A stretch of 64,000 bases of DNA from the IMG/VR virus record IMGVR_UViG_3300050134_000033; one strand, 5' to 3'. The notes below the pieces were generated by a model. That model searched no databases. It was given only the letters and a program-made list of their open reading frames with translations, and was not told the DNA's origin. The position numbers were made by a program, and so were the translations under genes. Each line of letters starts with the position of its first letter. Position 1 is the first letter of the stretch. This document shows positions 3,165 to 62,573 of the stretch, one piece after another. This DNA comes from an uncultured virus (IMG/VR IMGVR_UViG_3300050134_000033). Taxonomy: Duplodnaviria > Heunggongvirae > Uroviricota > Caudoviricetes.

Positions 3165-3717
3165 TCATTTGATTTTGTAGGTCTGGATCACGGCGTTTAT
3201 CTTCGACATGATGTCGTCGTTTTCCTTGGATATGGGAACGACTCCCTCGAACTCTATCACGCTGTGACTCTTGGTGTCCAGCTTATCACCAGCGAAAGAC
3301 CATCTGCCGATCACAAAGTCCCTGCCCTTGTCGTTTTGTGCGGTGTAGGCGAACAGCACGCCGTACTCGTCGCCCGCTTGGTATTCCTTCATGGAGAGAG
3401 TTGCCACGCCTTTTTCATCCTGAGTTTTGGCTATGCGGCTGGCGATTATACCAGCCGCGTCCATCTCGTCCGTCGCTGGGATGATCGTCACATTCAGGGC
3501 TACGTCTGCACGCGGTGCCTTGTCTTTATCCATCAGGAGGAGCACCTGCGAGTCGTCCATTGTCCCCAGCTTCCAGACGGTGGGGTCGTACTGCACGCTC
3601 GCGGTTGGGGTGACTTGCCAGACCGCCAGCTTTGGGACACCGGGCGACGGTTTAGCAGTCTGGGCAATCAGGCTGACGGCGAGCAAGAGCAAGGGCAACA
3701 GGGCGAGTTTTCTCATG
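3165..3717 (-). CDS. Secreted hypothetical protein
   Basis: Signal peptide MRKLALLPLLLLAVSLIA. Confidence 0.6.
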
Positions 3718-8068: not shown

Positions 8069-8100
8069 ATTATACCAACCTTTCTTGGAAAAACGGTAGC
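8069..8100 (-). promoter_or_regulatory. Recurrent phage promoter (ku)
   Basis: GCTACC-N20-TATAAT-N6-ATG. Confidence 0.75.
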
Positions 8101-22569: not shown

Positions 22570-23655
22570 TTTGTTACCTCACTTTGATCTAACCCGAGTT
22601 ATCGGGCAAAGTTATAATACATGAGATGCATAGTCAAAGAATTTAGATTCCATCTTTACAACACTTTACAGATCATCCTTGCGCCTGCTTGATTTCCTTC
22701 TGAATTTTCTTCACTTCTTCGTCGTGATCCGCGAGAAAGGTTTTCTTCTTCATACTCAGATGGATGAGATGAGATTTCTTCTCGTTGACGTACTCCTGTG
22801 GAAAGCAGATCGCCCGCCAGTCCGTCTGGTTGTACTGGTAGGGGCTGATCTGGAACTTATTCAAGGCGTCCAGCGTTTTCTTGCCGTGAGAACCTGACGA
22901 AGACCCGAGCGCCCGTCCGTTGCAACACAGGCTCCAGTCGAACATATCGTAGTTGCCCATGTAGTCGGGCTCGCCGCCGTGCCGCTGGGTCTCGGTCCAC
23001 TTGTAGGGAGCCTTGAATTCCGCGCACTTTTTAAGGTGGTTCTTGGCTGGCCAATATTCGCTGTCCTGTTGCTTCATGCCGCAGTTGGAACAAACCAGTT
23101 CGACCATCTCGACCTTAGTGCCGTCCGTCCGCTTGAACGTGAAGGACTTTTTAATGAGACGTGGGCGGTAGCTCATTTTGCACCGCCGACTTTCCAGCAC
23201 GACCCGGGCACCTTGGTGACTTCACCGTCTCGGGCGAGGGCGTAATCGCAGCCATCGGGACCGTGGGTCAGATCGGTTGTCACGTCGCCAGCGGTGAGGG
23301 GATGCTTGCGACCGCATTCGCGGGCTTGCTTTGATCCCAGCACCAAAAGCTTACTGTGCTGGGTGATCTCGTACAGACAGTCATCCGTTCCCAGCGTGGT
23401 AAGGGTTTTGCCGTCATTTGAGACGGGACAGGAACCCGCTGTGACGGTGATGATTCCCTCGGGGGTGATTTGGTACTGGCAGGCTTCGTCTGTGGTGCCG
23501 TAGACTGTGCCCAGCTTCGTGTCTTCGGGGCTGGGACGGGAGTCAATCTTGGCTCGGACACCGACCTCGCAGGCAGCCATGAGGACTACTACAAAAATCG
23601 CGGCGAGCAGTTTGGTGAGGTTCATGCTTCTATAATACCACAGCTTGAGGAAAAT

Positions 23656-23739
23656 TGGTCCCAGCAGAGGGAGTCGAACCCCCGTTGACCCTTGCGAGTC
23701 TCCGATTAGTCGGGTGCATAACCGTTCTGCCATACTGGG
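23656..23739 (-). ncRNA. Type II tRNA-like RNA lacking the anticodon triplet
   Basis: Full acceptor, D, V and T arms with an A73-CCA end, but the anticodon loop is only CTAA. Confidence 0.8.
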
Positions 23740-23745
23740 AAAGTT

Positions 23746-23822
23746 TGGTGAGAGCGGTGGGGTACGATCCCACATGGTCATCGCTTAAAAGGCGAGTGCA
23801 TTACCCAGTCTGCCACGCTCCC
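23746..23822 (-). tRNA. tRNA-Lys(UUU), atypical T loop
   Basis: CTCGC-CT TTT AA-GCGAT; T loop ATCGTAC; CCA end. Confidence 0.85.
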
Positions 23823-23837
23823 ATTTGAAAAGAAGTT

Positions 23838-23918
23838 TGGGGGGCGTGGTGAGGGTCGAACTCACATTTTCAGTCCATTACAGTGATCGGGTTTAGAAGG
23901 CCCGTCCGCTACACGCCC
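23838..23918 (-). tRNA. D-armless tRNA-Arg(UCU)-like
   Basis: Acceptor GGGCGTG/CACGCCC, no D arm, CGGGC-CT TCT AA-ACCCG, 22-nt variable region, T arm and CCA. Confidence 0.7.
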
Positions 23919-24294
23919 ACACGAATTGTGGTTAACGTTTTCGTCTGGTGAAGAGGATCGGCGTAGCTTCGCAAATGAGCAGGAGGGCTCCTGCGGCGAA
24001 GGCTGGTAACAAGTTTTGAATCAGTGTAGTCATAGTTATTCTGCTTCGTGGATGACCTGCAACAGATATGCGAGGTACATCGCGGTACGTGTGATCTTTA
24101 GTGTAACCATTGCTGTTCGTCCGCTTTCATCCTGTCGAACCGCTGTTCGACGTACTGTCTAAAATCTTCTTTTTCTGCGTCATAGCTGGCGAATTTGTAC
24201 AGCCATATCAACGACGCACCGGGAATGACTACCCCGAGCCCGACAAGTAGAACGTTTTTTAACGTTCGATTCACAACTACTACTTTCTAAAACT

Positions 24295-24368
24295 TGGCTG
24301 GCACACAGGGATTCGAACCCCGATACCTTGCTCCAGAGGCAAGGGTCCTGCCGTTGAACGATGTGCCA
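24295..24368 (-). tRNA. tRNA-Gln(CUG)
   Basis: CTTGC-CT CTG GA-GCAAG; U1-A72; CCA. Confidence 0.95.
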
Positions 24369-24527
24369 ATCTTTACTTCTCGGTCACGCTCTTGACCCGC
24401 CATAGCGGGAACCGAGCTTCAAACTGTTTCAGGGCCGTTTCATCATCAACAGCGAACTCCGTGTACTCCGACTCTAAAGTCGAGTTCGGGAACGGCAACG
24501 CTATGATGAGAAACTCTTTCAACTCCA

Positions 24528-24752
24528 CTACGGCACCATGACTTCTTTCAGAATCACATCTTCACTGTTGCGAATCACCAACCGCTTCGGCACCAAATCA
24601 TCCTTGCGGCGGCAGTGAAGCTCGTTGGTGATGTACTTGTACAGCGCCACAGCCCGACGAAGGATGTCCACCTTGGTGCAACCCTTCTTATCTGCTAACT
24701 CTTGCAGGATGTCGTTCATCCTGTCGTTGAACTCTACCGTCAGCACTGGCAT
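24528..24752 (-). CDS. Ribbon-helix-helix (CopG-like) DNA-binding protein
   Basis: LTVEF...L.ELADKKG.TKVDILRRAVALY. Confidence 0.75.
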   Translation of the reverse strand: MPVLTVEFNDRMNDILQELADKKGCTKVDILRRAVALYKYITNELHCRRKDDLVPKRLVIRNSEDVILKEVMVP

Positions 24753-25056
24753 CTTTGTTCTCCGTGACCGACATGGCGATCTGTAATCTAATACCCTCTT
24801 CGCCAGTCAATTGAGCAAGAAATTCGTCGAGCACGCCGTCAAACTTTACGTCGAGCATGTGATCCTCCTAGAACCAGTCCGCTCCCGACTCCATCTTACC
24901 ACAAGCATCACAGCAACGGTCAAACGCACATGCTGTAACCCCGCCGCACTCAGGCCATAAAGCCTTCAACCTCGTGTATGTCCAAGCGTGCATGTCATGC
25001 TCGCACAGCCAGCGGCTCAACTTTTGCATCCACTTCGCTTTGAACGTCATAAAATA

Positions 25057-25134
25057 TGGTGACCCGAGTGAGATTCGAACTCACGACCTTCTCTTTAGGA
25101 GAGAGACGCTCTAGTCCAACTGAGCTACCGAGTC
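25057..25134 (-). tRNA. tRNA-Arg(CCU)
   Basis: TCTCT-CT CCT AA-AGAGA; CCA. Confidence 0.95.
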
Positions 25135-25762
25135 AAACTTTTCTGGTTACCCGATACGGGCAACCGCGAAACGTGACGATTGTCTGTCCGTCCCGATTCA
25201 ATTCCTCTTCGATCCGAGCCCGATCCTTCAGGATGAGGTCGGCTAATTCTTTCTCAGATGCCCTATCGTAGGCAGCGGCACCCCATGTTAATGCTTTCGA
25301 TAGTGCCTGAAGATCATTTACCATCAGGCAGTACCCTGTCCAAAAGCCCCGACCAGCCATCTATCAACTTCGGCACCACGCTGATAGCCACGAGAGCTAT
25401 GAAGTAACCCACCAAATCCTTTGCCGCCGTCAGATAGTGATGATGGGCCGCATCCCAGACCATGGCACAGACGCAAACAATCCCAATCGCGGCGAATCCA
25501 AGGGTCGCCATCAGCTTATTCAGGAAGCAAAACCAGCAGCCTCGGATATGCGGTACGCCTGCCATTATGCCTTCACAATCCACGCCCCAATTGCGGCGAT
25601 TCCTAAAACGATCTCCAGAGCCAGCATACCCCAGAGCTTCTTCGTGTCGGTCATCTGAGTGCTAATTGCCAGCACCAGACCTACACCCATGAGGGGAAGA
25701 CTGCGTAATCCGAACTCGACGCCGCCAATCTCCCTCGCCATAGTTATATCCTGTGCACGAAA

Positions 25763-25877
25763 TGTTCCCTGTCGGGCAACCTATTGTGCATCCAATCTCA
25801 TTCCCGGAATGTTCCCGTTCGGGAATATTTGGGTGTCACCGAACGGCGACATTCGTAAATGTTACCGTTCGGTGTCA
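25763..25877. repeat. Four imperfect 18-bp palindromes (consensus about TGTYMCCG-NN-CGGKRACA)
   Basis: Copies start at 25763, 25810, 25834 and 25860 in an intergenic gap. Confidence 0.6.
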
Positions 25878-25879
25878 TC

Positions 25880-26434
25880 CTACTTGTCTAACTCCACGTT
25901 CCAGTAGAGCCAGCCCCCATCAGCCCACTCCTTCCACTCGGGACGGAGCTTCTTGATGTGCAGCTTGAAGTTGTAACGCGGGTCGGTTGCCTTCGGCTCC
26001 ATGGGCTTCTTACGGAGCGTCATGCCAGACTCGGCCAACGTGTGGTTGTTCTTCATCTTGTTGCACTTGATGCAAGCCAAGACCAAGTTCAGCCACGTGG
26101 ACAATCCACCCTTCGAACGCGGGATCACGTGATCCAGAGTGTACTCGTGACTGTGCAAGAACTTGCCACAATACTGACACTCGCTGTTGTCACGCAGGGC
26201 GATGTTACGACGAGAGAACGGCACGCTCAACTTCAGCCGCTTGACGACGTAGTTCTTCGCCTTGATGACACGAGGCATGTTCATCTCGATGGACGGGGAG
26301 TGCAGGAAAACGTGCGGGTCTTCCTTCACGATTTCGGCACGGTCTTCCCAGTACATCTTGACGGCACGCTGCCAACTCACAAACCCGATGGGCCTGTTCG
26401 AGAGGTCAAGAACTAATGTGTCTGCCATTCCCAT
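25880..26434 (-). CDS. McrA-like HNH endonuclease
   Basis: SRRNIALRD...CQYCG...TLDHVIPRSKGG..TW.NLV.AC..CN..K. Confidence 0.9.
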   Translation of the reverse strand: MGMADTLVLDLSNRPIGFVSWQRAVKMYWEDRAEIVKEDPHVFLHSPSIEMNMPRVIKAKNYVVKRLKLSVPFSRRNIALRDNSECQYCGKFLHSHEYTLDHVIPRSKGGLSTWLNLVLACIKCNKMKNNHTLAESGMTLRKKPMEPKATDPRYNFKLHIKKLRPEWKEWADGGWLYWNVELDK

Positions 26435-26470
26435 AAATCACGTTGTCTCCCTTCTTATCAGTCTAAAAGA

Positions 26471-26547
26471 TGGTTTAGGGGGCGGGAGTCGAACCCGCCA
26501 GTCTTCCGCTTGCGCGGCTGCTCTGCCTAAGCTTGAGCTAACCCGAA
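26471..26547 (-). ncRNA. tRNA-like RNA with a GCAA tetraloop in place of the anticodon loop
   Basis: D arm GCTC/GAGC, CCGC-GCAA-GCGG, T arm GCGGG-TTCGACT-CCCGC, mismatched acceptor stem, CCA. Confidence 0.75.
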
Positions 26548-27292
26548 TCTGCGTTCCTTAATCTCTTGGATGTCTATGATCTGCGTCGGATACCACAGAT
26601 ACACCCTCATCCGTCCATCCGCTGGATCAATCTTGCCGTTATCGGCGGGGCCGGGGCACATGTGAGTCAGCCAGCGACCCTCAAACCCGCACACATCGCA
26701 TTTCTTCATACCCTTACGCCCTTCGCTTGATCCCTGAACTTCTGCCACTCGGCGTCACCCGTCTGCCAGCGCCAGATCATGTCCACGAAGGACCCACAGT
26801 ACGTGCAGTAGATTTCGACGGTGCCGTAGAGGGGGTCAAAGTTCCGACCTTCACGCTCTGCCGCGTCATCGCCGAGACATCGGGGGCACGCTTGCCGCAT
26901 TTTATGCTTCCACAGTAGTCGCGATATTGTCTGGGTGTACCAGCGCGTGGTTTCCACCCCCACCTTTCGGGCATTGCTCCATAGGAGCGGTCTGGGTTTC
27001 GCCATCCTCAAACATCCTTTTGCACTGCACGCACTGCATCTGCGGCACCACGGTCAACTGGTAGTCGCAAAACTCTTCCGTCTCCGCTCTACCGTTCTTT
27101 AGTTCATCCATCAATACTGTGTACCAGAGCGTGTCAGGGTTAAACCCCCTCGGATTCCGAACAGGGTTTCCATATCGGGTTGTTGGCGGATCGTGGCGAT
27201 AAGGTCCTCGAATAACGGTGCCTTTTTCTCCGTGCCGTCCGCCTTGATGCACTCGAACTCGATTTGTTTGCAGCATAAATTACCTCGAATCT

Positions 27293-27368
<76 letters not shown>

Positions 27369-27394
27369 ATCTCTACTTACAATACTCCAAAACT

Positions 27395-27470
27395 TGGTGA
27401 GCGGCAAGGGAATCGAACCCTCGTAGTCTCGGGTAAGAGCCGAGTGCATATCCAGTTCTGCCAACCGCCC
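27395..27470 (-). tRNA. tRNA-Lys(CUU), divergent second copy
   Basis: CTCGG-CT CTT AC-CCGAG; CCA. Confidence 0.9.
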
Positions 27471-27683
27471 AAACTTCAGTATTCATTAGTATGAAGCAAG
27501 CTGGAGCCTACACTGCCCGCGAGGGCGACGAGGAGTGTTTCTTCACTGTCCTCGAATGCGGCTGCACTTACCGAGTCGCTGTCGAAACCCTGTTCGATGC
27601 CGACATCCCTTGCCCGCTCCATGAGGAGCACCGTTTTACGGGTGACCCTCCACCGCCGAACAAACCACACGTTGAGACTTAAT

Positions 27684-27763
27684 TGGCTGTCGCCGCCCGA
27701 CTCTCACGGACATTACCCACTAGCGCGTGGGCGAGACGAACCCGCCTCCCGTTTCGCAACAGC
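27684..27763 (-). ncRNA. Highly divergent CCA-ended cloverleaf RNA
   Basis: CTGTTGC/GCGACAG-CCA, hairpins GAGGCG/CGTCTC and CCCAC/GTGGG, T-like arm GTCCG-TGAGAGT-CGGGC. Confidence 0.55.
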
Positions 27764-27769
27764 TTACTA

Positions 27770-27844
<75 letters not shown>

Positions 27845-27910
27845 ATGTCTAATAACCTTTCGCTTCGTACTTGAGCCTGCGTTTCGTGCTCGTATACGTC
27901 TTTCGTTTCG

Positions 27911-27986
27911 TGGCAGGAGCACTAGGATTCGAACCTAGAAGTCTCGTTTTGGAGACGAGCAGTTTGGCCGTTAAGCTTATGCTCCC
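27911..27986 (-). tRNA. tRNA-Trp(CCA)
   Basis: CTCGT-CT CCA AA-ACGAG; G73; CCA. Confidence 0.92.
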
Positions 27987-27997
27987 GCATCTAAAAT

Positions 27998-28083
27998 TGG
28001 CTGGGAAGGAAGGAGTCGAACCTTCAGTGCCCTAAGGCGGTGGATTCAGAATCCACTGGGGTTGCCAATTTTCCTACTTCCCA
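27998..28083 (-). tRNA. tRNA-Gln(CUG) with a long variable arm
   Basis: GTGGA-TT CTG AA-TCCAC; V arm GCC-TTAG-GGC. Confidence 0.88.
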
Positions 28084-28246
28084 ATCTTTCAACAAACTCA
28101 ATCTTCTCGCGGCATTCCTGAGCCCATCTCATGAACTCCTCGGAGAGGTCGATCATTCCCCGGGCTGCCGCTTCGAAAGCTGTGTCGAGGCACTGTTGCT
28201 CACACCGTGCGTTCCACTCGACGATCAGTTCTTTCGTCAACATATT

Positions 28247-28332
28247 TGGCTGGGACGGTAGGACTCGAACCTACAAGGGCTTTCGCCACACGATTAACAG
28301 TCGTGCACGCTACCATTACGCTCTACATCCCA
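28247..28332 (-). tRNA. tRNA-Asn(GUU) with a long variable arm
   Basis: CACGA-CT GTT AA-TCGTG; V arm GGC-GAAA-GCC. Confidence 0.88.
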
Positions 28333-28496
28333 AAACTTATGCTTTCGTAAAACCTGCCTTACAGAATCCGCAGGGACAACCCACTGCGTGAACCGTCGAG
28401 CCTTCCTTGGCTTGCTCCTGCTTCTTGCGTTCATGCCAGCCGAGGGCATTGCTCCGACTATCGACCCCTTCGTTTTGTTTCTGTTCTTCCATAAAC

Positions 28497-28583
28497 TGGA
28501 GCAAGTGACAGGACTCGAACCTGCATTCCCCGAAGGGCTGGGCGTTCGTAGCGCCCGTGGCGTCCATTTGCCGACACGCCCGC
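28497..28583 (-). tRNA. tRNA-Arg(ACG) with a long variable arm
   Basis: GGGCG-CT ACG AA-CGCCC; V arm CCC-TTCG-GGG. Confidence 0.85.
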
Positions 28584-28589
28584 AAAATT

Positions 28590-28666
28590 TGGTGATCCTA
28601 GTAGGATTCGAACCTACACTGATCCGCGTTCGAAGCGCAGGTGACTATCCAGTTGCCGATAGGACC
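28590..28666 (-). tRNA. tRNA-Arg(UCG)
   Basis: CTGCG-CT TCG AA-CGCGG. Confidence 0.9.
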
Positions 28667-28734
28667 AATCTAAAATCCGGAGGGCTTGAGGGATTTCACG
28701 TCGTTCCAGCCGTCGCTGTCTATCCTCTGCCCTT

Positions 28735-28828
28735 AGAACGTTTCGGCGTATGGCTGGCGGGATTCGAACCCGCATCTCCTCGCAATGAGGTGCTCTGCCA
28801 ATTGAGCTACAGCCGACCTCTACGTTCC
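28735..28828 (-). ncRNA. tRNA-like domain on an extended bulged stem, no CCA
   Basis: Canonical D and T arms, short CCTC-ATTGC-GAGG arm, acceptor GGCTG/CAGCC extended by GGAACGT/ACGTTCT. Confidence 0.65.
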
Positions 28829-28833
28829 AAACT

Positions 28834-28910
28834 TGGTGCACATGGCAGGATTCGAACCTGCGACCCCCGGTTTCGTAGACCGATGCTCTGTTCCGCTGAG
28901 CTACACGTGC
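28834..28910 (-). tRNA. tRNA-Arg(ACG)
   Basis: TCGGT-CT ACG AA-ACCGG; canonical. Confidence 0.95.
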
Positions 28911-29308
28911 AAAAATTTTAACCAGTACCAACCTTGCTGTTTCGCTGTTCGACGCCGATGACAGTTACTACATCGCACATCGCATTTTTCAATTTCCAGC
29001 TTTGCAGCGTGGTATTTCTTACAACAGATCAATCGTGAAATTATATCGTCTTTCTTGACACCATCACGATGATCGAAATCCAGAACTACGGGATCAGGTT
29101 CCCCGCAATCTACGCATGGATGATTCCTGAAATACGCCATCAGCCATTCGTACATCTCTCGCTTGTAACGTTCGCCATTCCTCTTTGCTTTAGCGATGTA
29201 CACCGCTTTGTTCTTAACGTAATCGCCGCGAGTAAACTCTCGTTGGCATTCCCGACAGTACGAGGCCGACGCGACCTCTTTTTCTTTCCCGCATTTGGGA
29301 CAGTTCAT
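28901..29308 (-). CDS. HNH-family endonuclease within the tRNA array
   Basis: PCVDCGE.DPVVLDFDH...KCDVRCSNCHRRRT. Confidence 0.8.
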   Translation of the reverse strand: MNCPKCGKEKEVASASYCRECQREFTRGDYVKNKAVYIAKAKRNGERYKREMYEWLMAYFRNHPCVDCGEPDPVVLDFDHRDGVKKDDIISRLICCKKYHAAKLEIEKCDVRCSNCHRRRTAKQQGWYWLKFLHV

Positions 29309-29355
29309 AGTGCCTCTATTATAGCACTACGAAGTCTGGATTACGCCTTCGTAAC

Positions 29356-29432
29356 TGGTAGTCCCGGTGGGATTCGAACCCACGACTTCCAGCTTCGGAG
29401 GCTGGCACTCTATTCCGCTGAGTTACGGGACT
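29356..29432 (-). tRNA. tRNA-Arg(CCG)
   Basis: CCAGC-CT CCG AA-GCTGG. Confidence 0.95.
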
Positions 29433-29720
29433 AAATTCTAATCAACCTCACGCGGTCGTAATGCGTTGTTGCTGACCTGCAAGCCACGCCTTTCGGCGCT
29501 TCACACGCTGGGCACTCATGATCCAGTGGGCTGCCAACAACCGTCGCTAAAGTTTTACCCTTTGAAGACGGAAGCTCGATGTGCACATCGGACCAATCTT
29601 GCCCCGAGGGGGCGACTAATCCTGTTCTCCGCTGCACGCTGGGCGAGCTTCCGTCCCCGCTGTTCAATATCTTGGTCCCTCCTTCAATCATCTCTGTCGT
29701 GCTCTCTCGCCTTAAAAACT

Positions 29721-29796
29721 TGGGGTGGACAGTGGGATTCGAACCCTCGACTACAGGAGCCACAATCCTGCGTTCTGCCGCTGAACTACGCCCACC
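29721..29796 (-). tRNA. tRNA-His(GUG) with encoded G-1
   Basis: CAGGA-TT GTG GC-TCCTG; G-1:C73. Confidence 0.95.
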
Positions 29797-29805
29797 ACAT
29801 CTAAT

Positions 29806-29885
29806 TGGGGTGACAGGTGGGAATTGAACCCACGAGACGACAGCTTCACAGGCTGCGGGTACATACCAACACTACCGACTGTCAC
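29806..29885 (-). tRNA. tRNA-His(GUG), divergent, no encoded G-1
   Basis: GCAGC-CT GTG AA-GCTGT; C73; the base at -1 is T. Confidence 0.85.
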
Positions 29886-30195
29886 AGTCTGCACATCCGG
29901 CAGATTCACGGATGCGACTTAATCTCTCGGCGTGGTGACGAATCTTGTGGCAATTTGCACACCGAACGTCACACTTCGCAATCTCTTCCAGCAGGCACTC
30001 GATAGTCATTAGCCCCTGCATCCCAACGCAAAACTTCTTTTCCCCTCTGACATGATCGAACTCAAGAACTCGAATGTCAGAATTTCCGCAATCAACGCAT
30101 GGATGGCTTTGAAGGTACTCCCTGATAAACGCTTCAAGCAACTCCCTGCGCCGTTGGTCAAAAGCTCGTCTGTCGGCCTTATCCTTGTACGGCAT
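29872..30195 (-). CDS. HNH-family endonuclease (paralogue of 28901..29308)
   Basis: PCVDCGNSDIRVLEFDH...KCDVRCANCHKIR. Confidence 0.8.
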   Translation of the reverse strand: MPYKDKADRRAFDQRRRELLEAFIREYLQSHPCVDCGNSDIRVLEFDHVRGEKKFCVGMQGLMTIECLLEEIAKCDVRCANCHKIRHHAERLSRIRESAGCADCDSR

Positions 30196-30213
30196 CCAGC
30201 AACCTTTCAAATT

Positions 30214-30301
30214 TGGCAGGGGTGGTGGGATTTGAACCCACAATGACCGAAGTCGGCGGTTTTGGAGACCGCTGGGCCGAACCGGGTTGCCCTTCACCCC
30301 T
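30214..30301 (-). tRNA. tRNA-Trp(CCA) with a long variable arm
   Basis: GCGGT-CT CCA AA-ACCGC; V arm GAC-TTCG-GTC. Confidence 0.88.
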
Positions 30302-30323
30302 ACAGAAAACCCACTAAAAATGC

Positions 30324-30348
30324 AAAAACCCACCAACTTTGGCGGGTC
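30324..30348 (-). terminator. Attenuator terminator before tRNA array 1
   Basis: GACCCGCCAA-AG-TTGGTGGGTT-TTT, 22 nt before the first tRNA. Confidence 0.85.
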
Positions 30349-30377
30349 TGTTTGATCTCGATTTGGAGTCTCTTGCT

Positions 30378-30509
30378 TTAGATTCCTACGACTCCAACTG
30401 AGCAGACCTGCCCACCGACCGACCAGCGATTATTCCGCTGGCGCTTACCGCCCACGCCCTGATGTTCTGGGGTCGCGGCGACGTTCGAGTTGGCTTTATT
30501 AAAGGTCAT
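30378..30509 (-). CDS. Leader peptide (43 aa) of tRNA array 1
   Basis: SD GAGGA; MTFNKANSNVAATPEHQGVGGKRQRNNRWSVGGQVCSVGVVGI. Its 3' part pairs with the terminator 5' arm. Confidence 0.8.
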   Translation of the reverse strand: MTFNKANSNVAATPEHQGVGGKRQRNNRWSVGGQVCSVGVVGI

Positions 30510-30527
30510 GTGTTCCTCAGCTTCTAT

Positions 30528-30559
30528 ATACTACCATGAAAGTCAGAGTTTTCGATAGG
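30528..30559 (-). promoter_or_regulatory. Phage promoter of tRNA array 1
   Basis: CCTATC-N20-TAGTAT, a member of the recurrent motif. Confidence 0.75.
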
Positions 30560-31293
30560 AAAATCAAAATTTATTTTTGCAATTGTTTTCGGGCGGCTAC
30601 CATTGCCTCGGTAGCGTCGTATTCATGGTAGTGTTCGGGACCCGGTTTGGTCAAGTAAATTCCTTTGAGCAGATATCGCCTCTCAAGCTGTTTGATGCTC
30701 ACAGGACCGCTGGCGTCGAACAGGGTGCCATCAGGTTTCTGGACAACGCAGTGGACGTATTCCGTGTACACAGTGCGGCTCAGACCGTTAACGAAGCGCA
30801 CAGGCCATCCTGTGAGGTCTTCGAGGGCTCGGGCGTATCGCCAGCAGTAGCCGAACAGCCATTGCCCGTTCGCTTTGGTCACCCTACCCATGGATTGTCT
30901 GCGTTTCGCCTCTGTGCGGGTCGAAAATCTTCTCGTCCTTGTAGAAGAAATGCTCGTCCATTTCGTGTAGTTCGAAGCTTCGGATAGCGCGGTACGCCGT
31001 CTGGAGAATCCACTCGTCCTTCATCTCGGGGTGAACTACGATTGGCGGCATGAACAAACTGATCGACTCGCCGCTCTGCACGTCTTTAAGGTTGCTGACC
31101 ATGATGCGAAAGCTGATGGGGCGGTATTCATCCATGAGTCCGCCGCCCGCGTACCAAGCGATATTGCCCGAGATCATCCACGTGACGTCCCGCTGGGTAT
31201 ACCGGATGTCGTTGAGGATGGCGTAGATTCGTTTGGCGAGGGGATGGTGCCAGAGGTAGCCTTCTTCCTCTGCAATGATGATGTTGGTCGGCA

Positions 31294-33185: not shown

Positions 33186-34127
33186 TTAGTCCTCCGCTCG
33201 CATTGCCATGTCGATCATGGCGACCTTAACAACCGACTCGTCACGCCATTCTTCCCACGCCGGGTGCCCGTCCGCCCGCTCATCGGCCCGCAGGTGCCCA
33301 GCAATCCAGCGACAGGCGAGCCCCAGCCCCCGTGCCAAGATACGGTTGGTCGCACAATCGTCTCTTCCCCAGACTTTGAGATAGAACTTGGTCAAGAACC
33401 GTGAGATAGCCTCACGATCAACTTGATCGGGCAGGTTGGATTCCGCCTGTGCCTTGTCCAGATCGGCAAATAGGATGTCGGTCGCATCCTTGAGGAATGC
33501 CTGATCGTACTTGCCCTCTCGAACGGCAATCAGCAGGCTCTTGTTCGGACGCGGGTAGGTGATCTCACCAGCCTGCATGAGTTCAATCCCCTCGCCGAGG
33601 AGTCGCATCACGTGCATGGCGGCCTTGGTGTCAAAGCCGAACTTCTCCTCAAGCTCGGGACGTTGCCCATGCTTACCCTGCCCACGCTCACCCATGTACC
33701 GCTGGCGCTGAGCCATAGCAAATCCACGGAACTGCTCCGCACATGCCTTGCTCAGGAAGAGGGTCCGCATGTTCCGTACCTCTTGCCATAGATCAGTGGT
33801 AGGTAACGTATTGTCGGCAAAGAGGTATGACAGGCAAGTTGGATTCCCACCCGAGGCGAGCTTCGCCCACTTCCGCAGCGAATAGAAGCAGATGTCCATG
33901 TCGCCGGGAACGTTCCGCTTCGTGTCGCCCGCAGACGACCACACGTAGTGAGGGTAGTCCTTTAGCCCGATGACCATCTCTGGCGGCTCGACGTAAACGC
34001 CGTACCAGTCGTCATCGTGCTTGTTCACAAGTTGCGCCCCATGGAGGTCAGACCCACCCCGGAACAGATGGATGAGGTTGTCCGTGTAGGGGAACTTGTT
34101 CGCCTTGAGTTGTTCAAAGAGGTCCAT
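33186..34127 (-). CDS. Pol-beta superfamily nucleotidyltransferase (RlaP/YcgL-like)
   Basis: GGSDLHG...DDDWYGVY, GNPT, RPELEEKFGFDTKAAMHVMRLL. Confidence 0.82.
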   Translation of the reverse strand: MDLFEQLKANKFPYTDNLIHLFRGGSDLHGAQLVNKHDDDWYGVYVEPPEMVIGLKDYPHYVWSSAGDTKRNVPGDMDICFYSLRKWAKLASGGNPTCLSYLFADNTLPTTDLWQEVRNMRTLFLSKACAEQFRGFAMAQRQRYMGERGQGKHGQRPELEEKFGFDTKAAMHVMRLLGEGIELMQAGEITYPRPNKSLLIAVREGKYDQAFLKDATDILFADLDKAQAESNLPDQVDREAISRFLTKFYLKVWGRDDCATNRILARGLGLACRWIAGHLRADERADGHPAWEEWRDESVVKVAMIDMAMRAED

Positions 34128-41627: not shown

Positions 41628-43783
41628 AACTTGGCTAACTTTTCGAGGTCGGCAACCTCGCACATCTCACGAGTGGGGATACGGAATCCACCCGGCGTGT
41701 CGATGGTGCCGTCCGCATTCGGTTCGATGCCGAACTTCTTCCAGTATGCGGCGTCGGGGAACGGAATCCAGTGAGCCATCATCTCGCGGATGATGCTGGT
41801 ATCCATCTGGGGCTTCTGTTCGTCGCTCATGAACGCTTTAACTGGAGCCCGACCGTCGCCATCTCGACGTAATTCTTGTCGGTCAGCCGACCCTCTTCTG
41901 CCCGGGCGGTGAGAGCCGCACGGCGGTACATGCTTTGGGCATTCTTGTACTCGATGCCCGAGTTGATTTCAGCCTTCCGCTTCTGCCACGCGGCAAAGCC
42001 TGTGTGATTCCGAGTGTTGTCTTCTTTCTTAGCCATGAGGCTCCTTATTCAATTGGGACGCTGGCGTGGAATAAAACGGCCAACACCATCAGCACTGCAT
42101 AGATTATGGTGAACGTTGCAAACAGCCACACCAGCCCGCCCACGAAGAACGATGCCGTCCAGCCGAGGACTGGGTGGTTGTGCATGAAGTTGCGGTACGA
42201 TTCGGATTCTCGATGGATCAAAGCCCCAACACCAGTGATGAATCCTGCTACGAACAGCATCACGAGAAAAAACAGAAAATCGATCATTGCCAATTCCCCC
42301 TACCCATCATTGCCAAAGGCGTTTCACTTGCCGCACTTGCAGTTGCAGCTTCCGCCGCCGTTCAAGCAAATGACCGCAAGAAGGGCGATGACCAACCATT
42401 CGAAATCGTGGTTGCTGAGATTGGGCAGGTTGAGTTGAATCCCGCCGAACCAGTGGGCCGAGGCTCGAATGCCGTAGTACAACAGGACGCCGACGACGAT
42501 AAACACGCCTGTCGTTATGATCCTGCGGATGGTTTTTTCAAAGCCGCTTTCGTAGCTCATGACAACCTCTTGACGAGAGTCTTCTCGCGTTCGGTCAACT
42601 CTCGGTTCAGAATCCGTTTCACTGCCTTGTCCAGACCAAAATATTCCACTCGGCCGTGGCGGGCGTCTTCCGAAGCATTCAGTATCCTGCGGATACTTTC
42701 CTCATTCGGGTGCTCCCGAAGTTCGTTGAGCAACCGCATCACTCTGTCCTGCGGCTTGCGTGCTACTTGGGCTTTTACCATTGAAACTCCTCATATTGCC
42801 CTCCAAAAGTCCCACGAATGCTTCATGCGGTGACGGTTCGGGAGGGTGGTCAATCTCCACACGTAATTGCGGAGACCGAAGAAACGATTTGGAACCAACC
42901 GATGCACCTGATCCAGCCTTAGCGGGATAGATGGCACGTGGTTGTCTTTCAGGAACTTTTCTTGGACGCCCCAATCCACATATATTTCGCGGATGTACTC
43001 TAACCTGCCGCGATAGGGCTCGGGAATCTCGGGACCCGGAATCCCGTTTTCGTAGAGGATTGTGCGGAACAAACTGCACGCTCCCCAAAAGCTGTGGTAG
43101 CTGTTGTGGTCGAACGAACCGTCTGGGTGTTGTGCTTGAATGTCTTCCAGCAGGTAGGGGATTGCCCGCATCCCAAGCTGATTCTTGATGTACTGGTAGC
43201 TAGGGTGGTCGGTCTTCGTCATGCTCAGGACAGCGGTGTCGTCCGTGTACTGATCCATGTGGGCGTTGTACAACTCCCGAGTGGTCAACTGATATGGTTT
43301 CTTCGGCTCGTCCGTGACGTTCCCCCAAAACCTTCCGTATTTTTCAAGCCATTCTGCGCTCGGGTCCATTTACTTCTCCATCCACGATCAGTATATCATA
43401 CCTGCTGGTAATCTTTGTCAGGCCAAGGCTTTCCGCAAGTCTTACAGCCCCGGCGTGACGGCTGTGCCAATGCCACATCCTCAGCTTTCACGATGTGCCA
43501 CGTCTGGATGCGGGCGGTCTCCTCGGTTTTGAACTCTTCCATGATGCACGAGCGGGCGATGCCGAGGTTGGCATTCTTGGTGATGAACCGATGCGGCACT
43601 TCGATGTCCACCGTCATCGTGACGCGGATTACTTTGCTCGGCCCGACGATCTTGGGCTGTTCATCGGTCAGGTAGCAGCGGTAGGGATCGAGCCCCACGT
43701 AGTGCTTCCACAACGCCATGAACCACTTCGGCACTTTTATTTCACCAATCATTATAGGATAATACCACGTGGCGGGGGAAAAG

Positions 43784-43877
43784 TGGTAGAGGGTACGGGA
43801 ATCGAACCCGTCCGAGTACGGTAATCAGCCGCGATTGCAGGTTTATAAGGCCCACCCGCACACCAATGCTACCCTCT
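43784..43877 (-). tRNA. Atypical tRNA-Ile(UAU) with a short D arm and long variable region
   Basis: Acceptor AGAGGGT/ACCCTCT-A-CCA; GTGGGC-CT TAT AA-ACCTGC. Confidence 0.8.
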
Positions 43878-43881
43878 AAAC

Positions 43882-43959
43882 TGGTGCCCGGGAGGAGACT
43901 CGAACTCCCAAAAATTCCCGTTTTAAGTGGGAAATGTCTGCCAGTTGCATCACCCGGGC
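43882..43959 (-). tRNA. tRNA-Leu(UAA) without the long variable arm
   Basis: TCCCA-CT TAA AA-CGGGA; Leu-like D arm; A73. Confidence 0.88.
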
Positions 43960-44358
43960 AAAATCCAATGAATCACGAAGTAGGCTACCAGCAAAAGTCC
44001 GCTGATAATCAGGATGCGGTGACGATACAACCGCAACCGAAGCGACTTGCTCGGTCGCCGTGTGGCGTACCTCAGAGCTTCTCGCTTCTCGTATGCCGCG
44101 TACTTGCGGTACTCCTCTTCGCTCTCCGCTGCTGTTGACGGCGGACACACACTGCAAAATATCTTCGAGTACGGAACAAACTTCCCCGTGCTCTCGTGTG
44201 TCTCCCAATCAACATGGATATGTGCTGTGGCGTCTTCGACGCATGGTTCGTAAGGCTTCATACCCTTATGATACTGCAATATTTGATCTTCTGCTTCTCA
44301 TATCCCTTGCGGGTCACGAGGCCAAACATCGGCACACATTAGGCACGTGAGTCAAATC

Positions 44359-44452
44359 TGGCGGTGAGCGGCAGAGTTGAACTGCCAATGCCCCATCTCT
44401 GAAGCATAGCCGTTTTCAAGACGGTCGGACTTGCCCATGTACCAAGCTCACC
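44359..44452 (-). tRNA. tRNA-Ser(UGA)
   Basis: CCGT-CT TGA AA-ACGG; long V arm; G73. Confidence 0.9.
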
Positions 44453-44943
44453 GAACTGGCGGTAGGAGGGAGAGTTGAACTCCCAATGCCCGTAGGCATA
44501 ACTGTTTTCGAGACAGTCGGACTTGCCAATGTGCCAACCCTACCAAACTTTTTCTTACGCAATCCCTTTTGCCAACGCCATTCGTTGTTATAAGCAACGT
44601 GAGCGTCTGTGCACGGCTTACAACGACAACCCAGAGTATACAGGCCGTGTGTTCCATGCCTGCCAGTCTTTGGCGTCCTTCGAGCCGCCTTGTTGCACTT
44701 ACGGTGCGAGTACGCAATGTTGTCTTCCGCCCAGAAAAGCTGCGGATCAACGTCGAGCCAATCCTTCTTGTGCTCAATGGAAAGCTCGCTGGCCTTCTCG
44801 ATCAGTTTGCCGCATTTGAAACAAACGTTGTCGCCTAGCTTTACCAGCAGTCCGAAAAACAGGCGTTGCTTGAGGCGGTTACTCGCTGTGCCGAACGGCA
44901 TTCCAAGTTGCTCGGCTTTCTTACAATTCGCATTAGTATCCAT
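44416..44943 (-). CDS. HNH-like endonuclease whose 3' end reads through tRNA-Ser genes
   Basis: CFKCG...SIEHKK.W...NIAYSHRKCN; HGT...Y..GCRC..C. Confidence 0.7.
   Translation of the reverse strand: MDTNANCKKAEQLGMPFGTASNRLKQRLFFGLLVKLGDNVCFKCGKLIEKASELSIEHKKDWLDVDPQLFWAEDNIAYSHRKCNKAARRTPKTGRHGTHGLYTLGCRCKPCTDAHVAYNNEWRWQKGLRKKKFGRVGTLASPTVSKTVMPTGIGSSTLPPTASSVSLVHGQVRPS
44457..44544 (-). tRNA. tRNA-Ser(CGA)
   Basis: ACTGT-CT CGA AA-ACAGT; long V arm. Confidence 0.9.
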
Positions 44944-44962
44944 GCGATTTAATACTCAAATT

Positions 44963-45054
44963 TGGCGGAGAGTAGAGGATTCGAACCTCTGATCCCGCTT
45001 GCGCGGGATACACGCTTTCCAAGCGTGCGGCATAAACCACTCGCCCAACTCTCC
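44963..45054 (-). tRNA. tRNA-Ser(GGA)
   Basis: CACGC-TT GGA AA-GCGTG; long V arm. Confidence 0.95.
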
Positions 45055-45055
45055 A

Positions 45056-45148
45056 TGGCGGAAGCGCCGAGATTCGAACTCGGACTCCCGAGGTAAACTC
45101 GGGAGGACAGGGTAGCAACCTGCTGCGATACCGTTACGCCACGCTTCC
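45056..45148 (-). tRNA. tRNA-Ser(GCU)
   Basis: GCAGG-TT GCT AC-CCTGT; long V arm. Confidence 0.92.
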
Positions 45149-45161
45149 GTACTTTATGTCC

Positions 45162-45194
45162 AAAAACACAAAAGCCGCCCAATTTCTGGCGGCT
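45162..45194 (-). terminator. Attenuator terminator before tRNA array 2
   Basis: AGCCGCC-AGAAATTG-GGCGGCT-TTTGTGTTTTT. Confidence 0.85.
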
Positions 45195-45228
45195 GCTCGG
45201 TGAATCTAATCTGCTTGTTTTCAGATAC

Positions 45229-45303
45229 TTACAAGCACACACCGATGCCGTCGCCCCGTGAGGAGCTACTAGACGATAACGATGATATGCTGATAGCGAT
45301 CAT
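45229..45303 (-). CDS. Ser-rich leader peptide (24 aa) of tRNA array 2
   Basis: MIAISISSLSSSSSSRGDGIGVCL, using all six Ser codons plus ATA and TTA. Confidence 0.85.
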   Translation of the reverse strand: MIAISISSLSSSSSSRGDGIGVCL

Positions 45304-45342
45304 TTTGTGTGTCCGGGTCACCTTCTTGCGGTGAGCCAACTT

Positions 45343-45825
45343 CTATATAATACCACGGAATTCCGAATTTTGGATAGGATTATCGAAATTTTTTGAAGCT
45401 AGGTAGTTTTCGATGTACCTCGCCGCCTCTCTGAGGGTTTCGGGATTGTCCATCGCCATGCCCAACATGGTGTTGCATCGGCTACAGAGGAGGCCACGAA
45501 TGCACTCCCCGCAAGACCAATAACCCGAACAGCATGAATGGTCATGGTCGATGCCCAGATACCTTCTGGATGGAGCTTGCCGACAGATAGCACAGACGCC
45601 CGCTTGATCCGCCATCCGAGCCGCATACTGTTCAGGAGTTATATGGTGCTTGTTGAGAACGAGGTACTTGCGAACGCGGTCGGGACGGTTCTTGATGAGA
45701 TGCTGGCACGCTTTGCAGTAAGTCTGAACACCAGATCGACGGTTCTTATGAGTATCGAACTTGGTTAAATCTTTCTCCCCACAGCTTGGACAACCCTTGA
45801 ATTCGTAGTTTTTCCATTGACCCAT
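45343..45825 (-). CDS. Endonuclease VII-family homing endonuclease
   Basis: CAIC...IDHDH...IRGLLCSRCN..LG...D. Confidence 0.85.
   Translation of the reverse strand: MGQWKNYEFKGCPSCGEKDLTKFDTHKNRRSGVQTYCKACQHLIKNRPDRVRKYLVLNKHHITPEQYAARMADQAGVCAICRQAPSRRYLGIDHDHSCCSGYWSCGECIRGLLCSRCNTMLGMAMDNPETLREAARYIENYLASKNFDNPIQNSEFRGII
45347..45378 (-). promoter_or_regulatory. Phage promoter of tRNA array 2
   Basis: CCTATC-N20-TATTAT. Confidence 0.75.
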
Positions 45826-54643: not shown

Positions 54644-55330
54644 TCACGCGCCTGCCCCCATCACCTTCTTGAACTCTTCCTCGGTGATCTCAATCTTCTT
54701 GCCATTGGGGTCAGCCATGAAATACTTGCCGCCCGAGAAGTTCCACGAGACTTGCTCCCACGTGACGGGCTCCTCAGCCAGCAAGACGCGGAGGGCGATG
54801 TCGTACTTGTACTCCAGCTTGTTTCGCCATTTTGCCTTTGACTCTGGGATTGTGCTGGTGCGACGGCGGTTCACGCCGAGGTCCGCGACTTTGAGGATTT
54901 TCGAGGCGGGATTCTCCGCAGATCGATAAATGAAATCGCGATAGGTTTCCTTGCCGTGCTCTTGGCAGTTGGCAATCTTGCAGAGATGGTCTCCATGACG
55001 CCGCGTGACACCATCAACAATGTCGGCAACTGTCTTGCCAAAGTCTTTACGGATGTCTTCAAGGGTCAGGGGGGTGTCCTCAGGCACGTCATGAAGGACG
55101 GCGGCGACCAGCATATCTTCGATGGTTACACCCTTGGGCAGGTGTAGAGGATCGGTGCCGCGAATCCCTGCGGCATAGGGGCCTCGGTCAAACTCCCGTT
55201 TGACAGCGAACATGACTTCGAGGGAGTGGACGATGTGCGGCTGGCCGTCTTCGTCGATCTGCCCCTGATGGGCAAGCACGGCGGTAAGGATCGCCTGCTC
55301 AAGACGAGACATGGGTTTACGTTCGACCAT
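54644..55330 (-). CDS. HD-domain (RelA/SpoT hydrolase, Mesh1-like) protein
   Basis: AH.GQ....G.P...H..EV, AAVLHDVPEDT, VDGVTR, KVADL..N. Confidence 0.8.
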   Translation of the reverse strand: MVERKPMSRLEQAILTAVLAHQGQIDEDGQPHIVHSLEVMFAVKREFDRGPYAAGIRGTDPLHLPKGVTIEDMLVAAVLHDVPEDTPLTLEDIRKDFGKTVADIVDGVTRRHGDHLCKIANCQEHGKETYRDFIYRSAENPASKILKVADLGVNRRRTSTIPESKAKWRNKLEYKYDIALRVLLAEEPVTWEQVSWNFSGGKYFMADPNGKKIEITEEEFKKVMGAGA

Positions 55331-61676: not shown

Positions 61677-62573
61677 TCATGCTGTGGTCCCCTTTCGATG
61701 ATCTGGAATCCGCGTAACCATGTCATCTTCCCAATGGATAGGGATCATGGTTCGCAGGTAATGACGCTCGCGTGTGAACACGGGAGTGCCTTCATCCATG
61801 AACCAATTGCTTTTCTCAGGCTTCGGAGCCTCCGAAGAAACCAACCCCGAAAAATTCCGAGGCACGAACGCGGGGTGAGCTACGGGGACTGGCGAATAGT
61901 CAACCGCCTGACGGCGAATGATGCCGCCATGCTTGAAGCGAGCGGGATGCTTTTCCCAATTGTCGCCCGCCGCGTGAATGATCTCGTGCTGAGCGGACTG
62001 ATTCTTGCCGTGCAGTTGCTTGTGCGAGGCGTGAGCCCGAGCCAGCATCATGACCGAGTTCCGCACTGCGTCCTGCTGACGCCACACGAAGTAGTTCTCG
62101 ACTTCAACGTGGTCTGGAATCGTCCAGACGCGGGCGTCGAACGTGGCGACTGGCAATTTCTTGGTGATAAGGAGTTCGTTCTCGGTCGGGTTCGACCCCT
62201 TGAGCTTCATCAATTCTGAGTTGAACGTCATGGTCGCGATGGCGGCGGCGACCGAGCACCATTTCTGCACCAGTCCATCGAACCATGCTTGGGTGCCGAT
62301 CTCAAGGAAATCCACGGCAAGTAGGCTGATCTCGTCACTCTGGACGAAAGCGAACTGTGCCCCCGCGATCTCTTCGCACAGAGCGATTGCGGTCTTGTCC
62401 ATCAGGTCCATCAAGAACGTATCGTAAGGTTTTGCGAGTCCCCGCGTCCATGTGTGGAATGCTCGCCCGTCAACACGGATGAGGGTGTAGGTGCGTGGGG
62501 GAAGTTTGTAGCGGGTGATGTCTTCATACCGCTTCATGCGGTCGCCGAGAGCGTCTCTTCGTTGGATAGTCAT
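61677..62573 (-). CDS. tRNA(His) guanylyltransferase Thg1-like protein
   Basis: RMKRYE, IRVDGRAFH, QSDEISL, FDARV, YFVWRQQDA.RNS. Confidence 0.93.
   Translation of the reverse strand: MTIQRRDALGDRMKRYEDITRYKLPPRTYTLIRVDGRAFHTWTRGLAKPYDTFLMDLMDKTAIALCEEIAGAQFAFVQSDEISLLAVDFLEIGTQAWFDGLVQKWCSVAAAIATMTFNSELMKLKGSNPTENELLITKKLPVATFDARVWTIPDHVEVENYFVWRQQDAVRNSVMMLARAHASHKQLHGKNQSAQHEIIHAAGDNWEKHPARFKHGGIIRRQAVDYSPVPVAHPAFVPRNFSGLVSSEAPKPEKSNWFMDEGTPVFTRERHYLRTMIPIHWEDDMVTRIPDHRKGTTA

Follow-up and report, generated by a model that had tools for sequence, protein, structure and literature searches.

Leader-peptide attenuation is familiar from operons such as ilvGMEDA (sensing Ile, Leu and Val) and thr (sensing Thr and Ile), in which a short translated leader carries clustered codons for several amino acids and the position of the ribosome decides between mutually exclusive antiterminator and terminator hairpins, the terminator being the stabler of the two, so that the decision is kinetic. 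The pheM leader of pheST applies leader-peptide attenuation to a component of translation that handles the sensed amino acid, and T-box riboswitches sense the status of a transfer RNA (tRNA) and switch a terminator and an antiterminator upstream of translation-related genes. To our knowledge, leader-peptide attenuation has been described for genes of amino acid synthesis and charging and not for tRNA genes. Here, we describe a leader with a similar predicted organisation in front of a phage tRNA array, in a stretch of 64,000 nucleotides (nt) from the uncultured virus of IMG/VR record IMGVR_UViG_3300050134_000033; this whole stretch is called the window below.

We propose that the leader is a ribosome-mediated (leader-peptide) transcription attenuator governing a phage tRNA operon of 6.7 kilobases (kb), a reading to which we assign a probability of roughly 0.7. 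The sequence provides the parts, their order, the match between leader codons and downstream anticodons, and the conserved core of the peptide; in silico folding provides folds that exclude one another and that depend on where the ribosome stands. From these we infer that the leader is translated, with kinetic coupling and regulated readthrough, and that there is a physiological trigger. In the proposed mechanism, host RNA polymerase would initiate at an extended -10 promoter and a ribosome would load on the 43-codon leader. When charged Lys, Arg, Gln, Asn, Trp or His tRNA is scarce, the ribosome would stall at or before codon 29, and the RNA downstream would fold as a two-tier antiterminator (30413-30341) that consumes the 5' arm of the terminator, such that the polymerase would continue into tRNA-Trp and the remaining array. 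Upon fast reading of the control codons, the ribosome would instead cover the 5' strand of the antiterminator and then melt its inner hairpin at the stop codon, whereupon the terminator would form and transcription would stop 14 nt short of the first tRNA. Since the products of the operon are the very tRNAs that are sensed, the arrangement would amount to a negative-feedback supply loop. At least four paralogous modules, the one studied here among them, would divide the phage tRNA set by amino acid. Its parts, given in the order of transcription, are as follows (ORF, open reading frame; MFE, minimum free energy).

30528..30560, minus strand: promoter block, a conserved upstream element plus the extended -10 TGGTAGTAT at 30528-30536, assigned by motif match and by recurrence before other tRNA modules
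30480..30521, minus strand: 5' segment that contains the start codon and its Shine-Dalgarno site, predicted by MFE folds to pair with the antiterminator 5' strand in the untranslated full-length RNA
30514..30518, minus strand: Shine-Dalgarno sequence GAGGA, 4 nt 5' of the leader ATG
30378..30509, minus strand: leader ORF of 43 codons plus TAA stop, with ATG start (ORF list and gene callers)
30459-30464, minus strand: His16 and Gln17 of the leader
30423..30446, minus strand: control run, residues 22-29, eight consecutive Lys, Arg, Gln, Asn or Trp codons, all decoded by array tRNAs
30403..30413, minus strand: antiterminator 5' strand, within codons 33-36 (folding)
30363..30397, minus strand: inner 8-base-pair hairpin of the antiterminator, with the stop codon (30378-30380) in its loop (folding)
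30340..30350, minus strand: shared segment, antiterminator 3' strand and terminator 5' arm in one (folding)
30316..30348, minus strand: intrinsic terminator, a 9-base-pair hairpin (30327-30348, -13.8 kcal/mol) and a T-tract to 30316
30214-30301, minus strand: tRNA-Trp, first gene of the array
23659..30301, minus strand: proposed regulated unit of 6.7 kb, with tRNA genes, two tRNA-like elements, two HNH genes and small ORFs
23632..23640, minus strand: next promoter (-10 motif), only a few bases 5' of the next gene's ATG, marking the 3' limit of the array unit

An earlier interpretation made from the letters alone (the sequence-only reading) had placed a Shine-Dalgarno sequence and a 43-residue ORF on the minus strand here, and both are present where it had put them; gene callers annotate the ORF as protein P0001 on nine contigs, the longest of 171 kb. 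It had further claimed that every assignable tRNA downstream belongs to the amino acids of the leader and that the anticodons match the codons used. Indeed, ARAGORN finds 16 tRNA genes in 23746-30301, all 16 of them for Trp, His, Arg, Asn, Gln or Lys (per type about two Trp, two His, six Arg, two Asn, two Gln and three Lys), and the codons of all 15 array-type residues of the leader are readable by array anticodons. This extends to the choice between synonymous codons for Gln, which is encoded by CAG three times and by CAA not once, CUG being the only Gln anticodon of the array. The supposition that such a pattern is unlikely to arise by chance is well supported for the control run: no run of eight array-type residues occurred in 200,000 random 42-residue segments from 35 phage proteins, the longest run anywhere in those proteins is five, and among the 380 small ATG ORFs in the six frames of the window a run of eight is present in one, the leader ORF itself. 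A 47-residue ORF at 44072-44215 has a run of seven; it is an Arg-rich frame lying under the longer ORFs 43876-44208 and 43950-44279.

A terminator had been claimed ahead of tRNA-Trp, and a terminator scan returns a stem at 30349-30326 with 10 pairs, a 4-nt loop and a T-rich tail, the T-tract ending 14 nt ahead of the gene. Both helices named for the antiterminator are found in the MFE fold of a transcript cut in the terminator loop: the outer stem pairs 30413-30403 with 30350-30341 and encloses the inner hairpin. The antiterminator as a whole is predicted at -25.6 kcal/mol versus -13.8 for the terminator; a ribosome that has reached the stop codon leaves just the outer stem, at -11.1 kcal/mol, weaker than the terminator. 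In the untranslated full-length RNA, the 5' end is predicted to occupy the 5' strand of the antiterminator (the fold of 30521-30398 reaches -43.2 kcal/mol) and the terminator forms. Equilibrium folding with ribosome masks fails to discriminate between the states, and models of truncated transcripts were used instead, in which the RNA ends in the terminator loop, the 3' arm being not yet made, and only the RNA 3' of the ribosome folds. In this model the 5' arm of the terminator is sequestered with P=0.78 as long as the A-site codon is any of codons 2-29, dropping to 0.03-0.23 for codons 31-44. The final codon of the control run is thus the last at which stalling would still favour readthrough. 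In the Ser and Leu/Tyr leaders described below, the same drop comes one to three codons past the last control codon.

A promoter had been proposed at 30528-30559 and is corroborated by recurrence, a generic sigma-70 scan having left this segment unflagged. Its -10 part fits the extended -10 motif TGGTAKWAT, of which the window holds 10 copies against 0.52 expected, 9 of the 10 on the coding strand, and the whole 33-nt block recurs before 15 distinct tRNA modules, counting metagenomes and window together. Transcription is predicted to start near 30521. No copy of TGGTAKWAT lies within either tRNA array of the window; the next copies, at 23632-23640 and 43759-43767, each stand just beyond the last tRNA of the respective array. 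Consequently, each array looks like one transcription unit for which the leader is the sole entry. Within the proposed unit, the same strand has just one other terminator-like site, at 25636-25613, and it is weak. No other promoter separates the T-tract from tRNA-Trp, 14 nt further on, and array transcription must therefore cross the terminator. Elsewhere in the window TGGTAKWAT often stands only about 7-10 nt before an ATG (e.g., at 8069-8077, at 3445-3453 and at 23632-23640 on the minus strand), and this proximity makes it probable that many of the phage's genes are expressed from leaderless mRNAs.

Conservation of the leader was assessed at the peptide level. A word index and a full HMMER search yielded three homologues from other metagenomes, P0002, P0004 and P0006 (37-43 residues), which are 62-77% identical to the window peptide. 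Of the 12 columns that are invariant in the alignment of the four peptides, 7 lie in the control region and hold array amino acids (His16 and six of residues 23-29); the flanks vary. The array-type fraction up to the first Trp is 14/28 in the window peptide and 17/28, 16/28 and 14/23 in P0002, P0004 and P0006, respectively (p values, 0.002 to 3e-5). The part of P0002 that precedes the core has been rewritten, and 6 of the 10 substitutions in this peptide yield array-type residues (p=0.015), a pattern that points to selection acting on codon class rather than on peptide sequence.

The same architecture recurs in a second module of the window, and here one claim of the sequence-only reading does not hold. 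It had considered the studied leader unrelated to the Ser leader; their promoter blocks are homologous and they are laid out alike, which makes them paralogues. The Ser module consists of two parts.

45163..45379, minus strand: Ser module, with promoter block 45347-45379, Ser-rich leader ORF 45229-45303 and terminator 45174-45194 plus T-tract
43784..45148, minus strand: Ser-module array, with four Ser tRNAs, Leu(UAA) and, at 43784-43876, a likely Ile(UAU)

The putative tRNA-Ile(UAU) is not called by ARAGORN in the window and is identical in 80 of 93 positions to a tRNA-Ile(UAU) called in another locus (L063). Among the 24 codons of the Ser leader each of the six Ser codons is found, as are TTA and ATA, two rare codons that each account for less than 0.5% of phage codons; the joint chance of their match to Leu(UAA) and the likely Ile(UAU) is about 0.0065.

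Further modules of leader plus array for other amino acids had been anticipated, and they exist in related contigs. A scan with the promoter block retrieved one related viral contig and 22 metagenome loci. Including the window, these comprise 15 distinct modules of four types: the studied leader type, three Ser modules, four Leu/Tyr modules (one cut by a contig end) and seven Pro/Met/Phe modules (one cut); with a looser scan, the Leu/Tyr leaders rise to five. A strict 16-nt version of the promoter pattern gave 37 matches in viral contigs, none with the conserved upstream block, and these were treated as chance. Enough sequence follows the leader in 13 of the modules, and each of these 13 leaders precedes an array of its own type. 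In the related contigs the Leu/Tyr leader precedes two Tyr and six Leu tRNAs, and the Pro/Met/Phe leader precedes five Pro tRNAs, Met, Leu(CAA) and two Phe. Codons matching the own array make up 15/42 in the studied leader (p=0.06), 11/23 in the Ser leader (0/20,000 random segments), 7/26 in the Leu/Tyr leader (p=0.024) and 8/23 in the Pro/Met/Phe leader (p=0.006), versus p>=0.44 in 11 of the 12 combinations of a leader with the array of another type. One compensatory pair change was found in the Ser terminator and one in the Leu/Tyr terminator. The Pro/Met/Phe leaders (L057 1665-1925; L060, L069, L074) have a long structured 5' untranslated region, and in L057 the first tRNA-Pro contributes its 5' acceptor strand as the 3' strand of the last hairpin. 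This type may be controlled differently, e.g., via tRNA processing.

The attenuator reading is consistent with the in silico tests, and, as seen above, the control run ends at a structural boundary and the homologues keep the core. Several observations nevertheless weigh against it. Enrichment over the whole ORF is marginal (15/42 against a background of 0.237, p=0.054-0.060), the six array amino acids making up 24% of phage proteins, and the signal resides in the clustering of array-type codons; from residue 2 to the first Trp enrichment is clear (14/28 against the same background, p=0.002), a count whose limit is a choice made after seeing the structure. Looser versions of the upstream promoter block also precede ordinary genes. 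The antiterminator model is the folding of one single sequence, and a model in which helices may close around the ribosome brings the outer stem back, with P=0.77, when the ribosome is at the stop codon. Once the 3' arm is present, the terminator is favoured at equilibrium for every ribosome position (P about 0.95), from which it follows that the switch must be kinetic; the decision in the classical trp attenuator is likewise kinetic. Back-translated leader patterns were unmatched in viral contigs and in bacterial and archaeal genomes, so that no DNA of a variant leader was obtained; the promoter pattern was without a match in the bacterial and archaeal genomes as well. The sister modules are not uniformly supportive either. 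The Leu/Tyr leader is equally rich in codons of the Ser array (8/26, p=0.0014), the Pro/Met/Phe leaders contain several Thr codons and no Thr tRNA follows in their array, the same leaders lack a canonical T-tract terminator, and a clear Shine-Dalgarno site is present in the studied leader and in none of the other three types.

Part of this evidence would suit a plainer arrangement, in which a leaky terminator keeps array transcription constantly low and the ORF is irrelevant or untranslated, its codon content stemming from shared ancestry. The dominance of the terminator at equilibrium in all simulated states and the three of four leader types without a clear Shine-Dalgarno site are in line with such a fixed setting. 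One contig from an RNA library (30256-30440) bridges the terminator from the control region into tRNA-Trp and is equally compatible with constitutive readthrough; contigs of this kind show neither ends nor levels and can reflect DNA carry-over, and this one fits leaky and regulated readthrough alike. What a fixed level of readthrough leaves unexplained is why four paralogous leaders have diverged toward the codons of their own arrays, why the control core is kept in four peptide homologues and why the run ends at a structural boundary, and we consider it unlikely.

A switch that operates without a ribosome, its terminator and antiterminator being set by a phage or host protein, a small molecule or direct tRNA binding, is rather improbable in our view. 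It would make use of alternative folds that exist without translation, and the RNA-repair genes for Thg1 and RlaP in the vicinity could be in keeping with it. Yet no Rfam leader family reaches its gathering score in the window (the best sub-threshold match is rnk_pseudo, 21.1 versus 55 bits), Trp_leader (RF00513) stays below threshold with 14.5 bits against a cut-off of 41, and T-box has no match at gathering score in the window nor at E<=5 in 30300-30580. In addition, one tRNA-binding RNA could not sense six amino acids, and the codon match would go unexplained.

Likewise, the peptide itself might be the functional product, its basic core of Arg, Lys, Gln, Asn and Trp acting as an arginine-rich RNA-binding motif, for example in antitermination. 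Phage N-type peptides, of which the core is reminiscent, act as antiterminators; the composition of the core resembles arginine-rich motifs, and it is at the level of the peptide that it is conserved in four homologues. The sister leaders have the same layout, but their Ser-, Leu/Tyr- or Pro/Met/Phe-rich peptides would be unable to share such a function, and in P0002 residues around the core have been exchanged for others of the same six types, for which reasons we regard a functional peptide as very unlikely. Finally, an accidental ORF between the promoter and terminator of an unrelated small transcript would be a most improbable coincidence: small ORFs are common (380 in the window) and whole-ORF enrichment reaches only p=0.05, but none of the other ORFs in this set and none of 200,000 random segments has the run of eight, the ORF is recorded on nine contigs with three homologues, and the pattern is repeated in four module types.

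Apart from its assigned tRNA genes, the array contains two tRNA-like elements and two nuclease genes; a third nuclease gene lies just upstream of the Ser promoter.

28749-28816, minus strand: tRNA-like element (Rfam tRNA, 50 bits)
23659-23739, minus strand: tRNA-like element (Rfam tRNA, 39 bits)
28901-29308, minus strand: HNH endonuclease gene in the array
25880-26434, minus strand: HNH endonuclease gene in the array
45343-45825, minus strand: endonuclease VII-like gene, just upstream of the Ser promoter

The anticodon loops of the two tRNA-like elements measure only 3-4 nt, which precludes an amino acid assignment and decoding; they may be pseudo-tRNAs or decoys. The two HNH genes of the array and the endonuclease VII-like gene probably encode homing nucleases. 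Many anticodons occur twice, once in a tRNA of normal length (74-78 nt) and once in a version of 80-90 nt, both in the window array and in L057 (1833-3176). Such long and normal pairs measure 88 and 76 nt for Trp, 86 and 75 for Asn, 86 and 74 for Gln, 85 and 77 for Arg(ACG) and 87 and 77 for Pro(UGG); judged by eye, the long tRNA-Trp carries an extra hairpin in the variable region. In the DNA contigs of two other runs, 29747-30208, with one tRNA-His inside, is replaced by 174 other letters, which is strain-level turnover within the array.

The window is part of an uncultured large phage. Its genes are mostly on the minus strand, and matches to PHROG and Pfam include an NAD-dependent DNA ligase, a Ku-like protein, nucleases of the HNH and endonuclease VII types, Thg1 and RlaP. 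The DNA runs that contain the stretch are labelled as peat metagenomes. Among GenBank phages, a near-identity search returned no relative and a distant search matched tRNA-His only, the ligase protein being at most 30% identical to proteins of these phages; with neighbouring proteins as search anchors, no syntenic relative was found. The nearest virus record (G001) overlaps the window from 1 to about 24,500 and then ends within the array. Outside the overlap, G001 carries a single tRNA, with a CUA anticodon (L046 12362-12436, labelled tRNA-Pyl by ARAGORN), possibly an amber suppressor. Three further genes of the window are of interest with respect to tRNA.

61677-62573, minus strand: Thg1 (tRNA-His guanylyltransferase)
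33186-34127, minus strand: RlaP RNA-repair nucleotidyltransferase
54644-55330, minus strand: HD-domain protein

Their presence in the same window as the tRNA arrays suggests a gene set for tRNA maintenance or repair.

If the attenuator reading is true, the molecule that is sensed is also the one that is produced, and decoding capacity would have a direct homeostat. The reading would also explain why the tRNA genes of large phages are sorted by amino acid into separate blocks and how these phages escape the cost of constantly expressing dozens of tRNAs, and the leaders could act as compact natural reporters of codon-specific translation speed. According to one recent paper (PMC12409363), some viruses encode tRNAs of their own to counter tRNA-cleaving host defences; regulated modules would tie phage tRNA arrays to such defences in a concrete and testable way. 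More tentatively, and on balance doubtfully, large phages might carry a closed-loop tRNA supply with a translated test strip for each block that senses, for every codon in it, whether decoding still succeeds in the infected cell: cleavage or depletion of particular tRNAs by a host defence (here Lys, Arg, His, Asn, Gln or Trp isoacceptors) would then induce only the matching block, which would be turned off once the tRNA is restored, as an on-demand counter-defence modelled on the trp operon, in which Thg1 and RlaP could serve the same programme.

A full-text literature search, with most subscription journals outside its reach, returned no account of leader-peptide attenuation of tRNA genes. 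A possible attenuator-like leader of the E. coli tRNA-Phe genes was considered as a precedent and dropped, there being no leader ORF between the pheV promoter and the tRNA. In comparison with T-box riboswitches, which bind one uncharged tRNA directly and do so without a ribosome, the present leader would respond to six amino acids, a task that one T-box could not perform. The ilvGMEDA and thr leaders regulate genes for biosynthetic enzymes, whereas the genes regulated here would be those of the tRNAs, the sensed amino acids would number six and the system is phage-borne; furthermore, the antiterminator strand in the untranslated RNA is predicted to pair with the 5' end bearing the Shine-Dalgarno site and not with the control codons. 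The pheM leader controls a synthetase, for one amino acid and in a cellular genome, while here control would be exerted on the tRNAs themselves. What appears to be new in this phage is the proposed application, supported in silico, of the trp-operon principle to the tRNAs themselves and to six amino acids at once.

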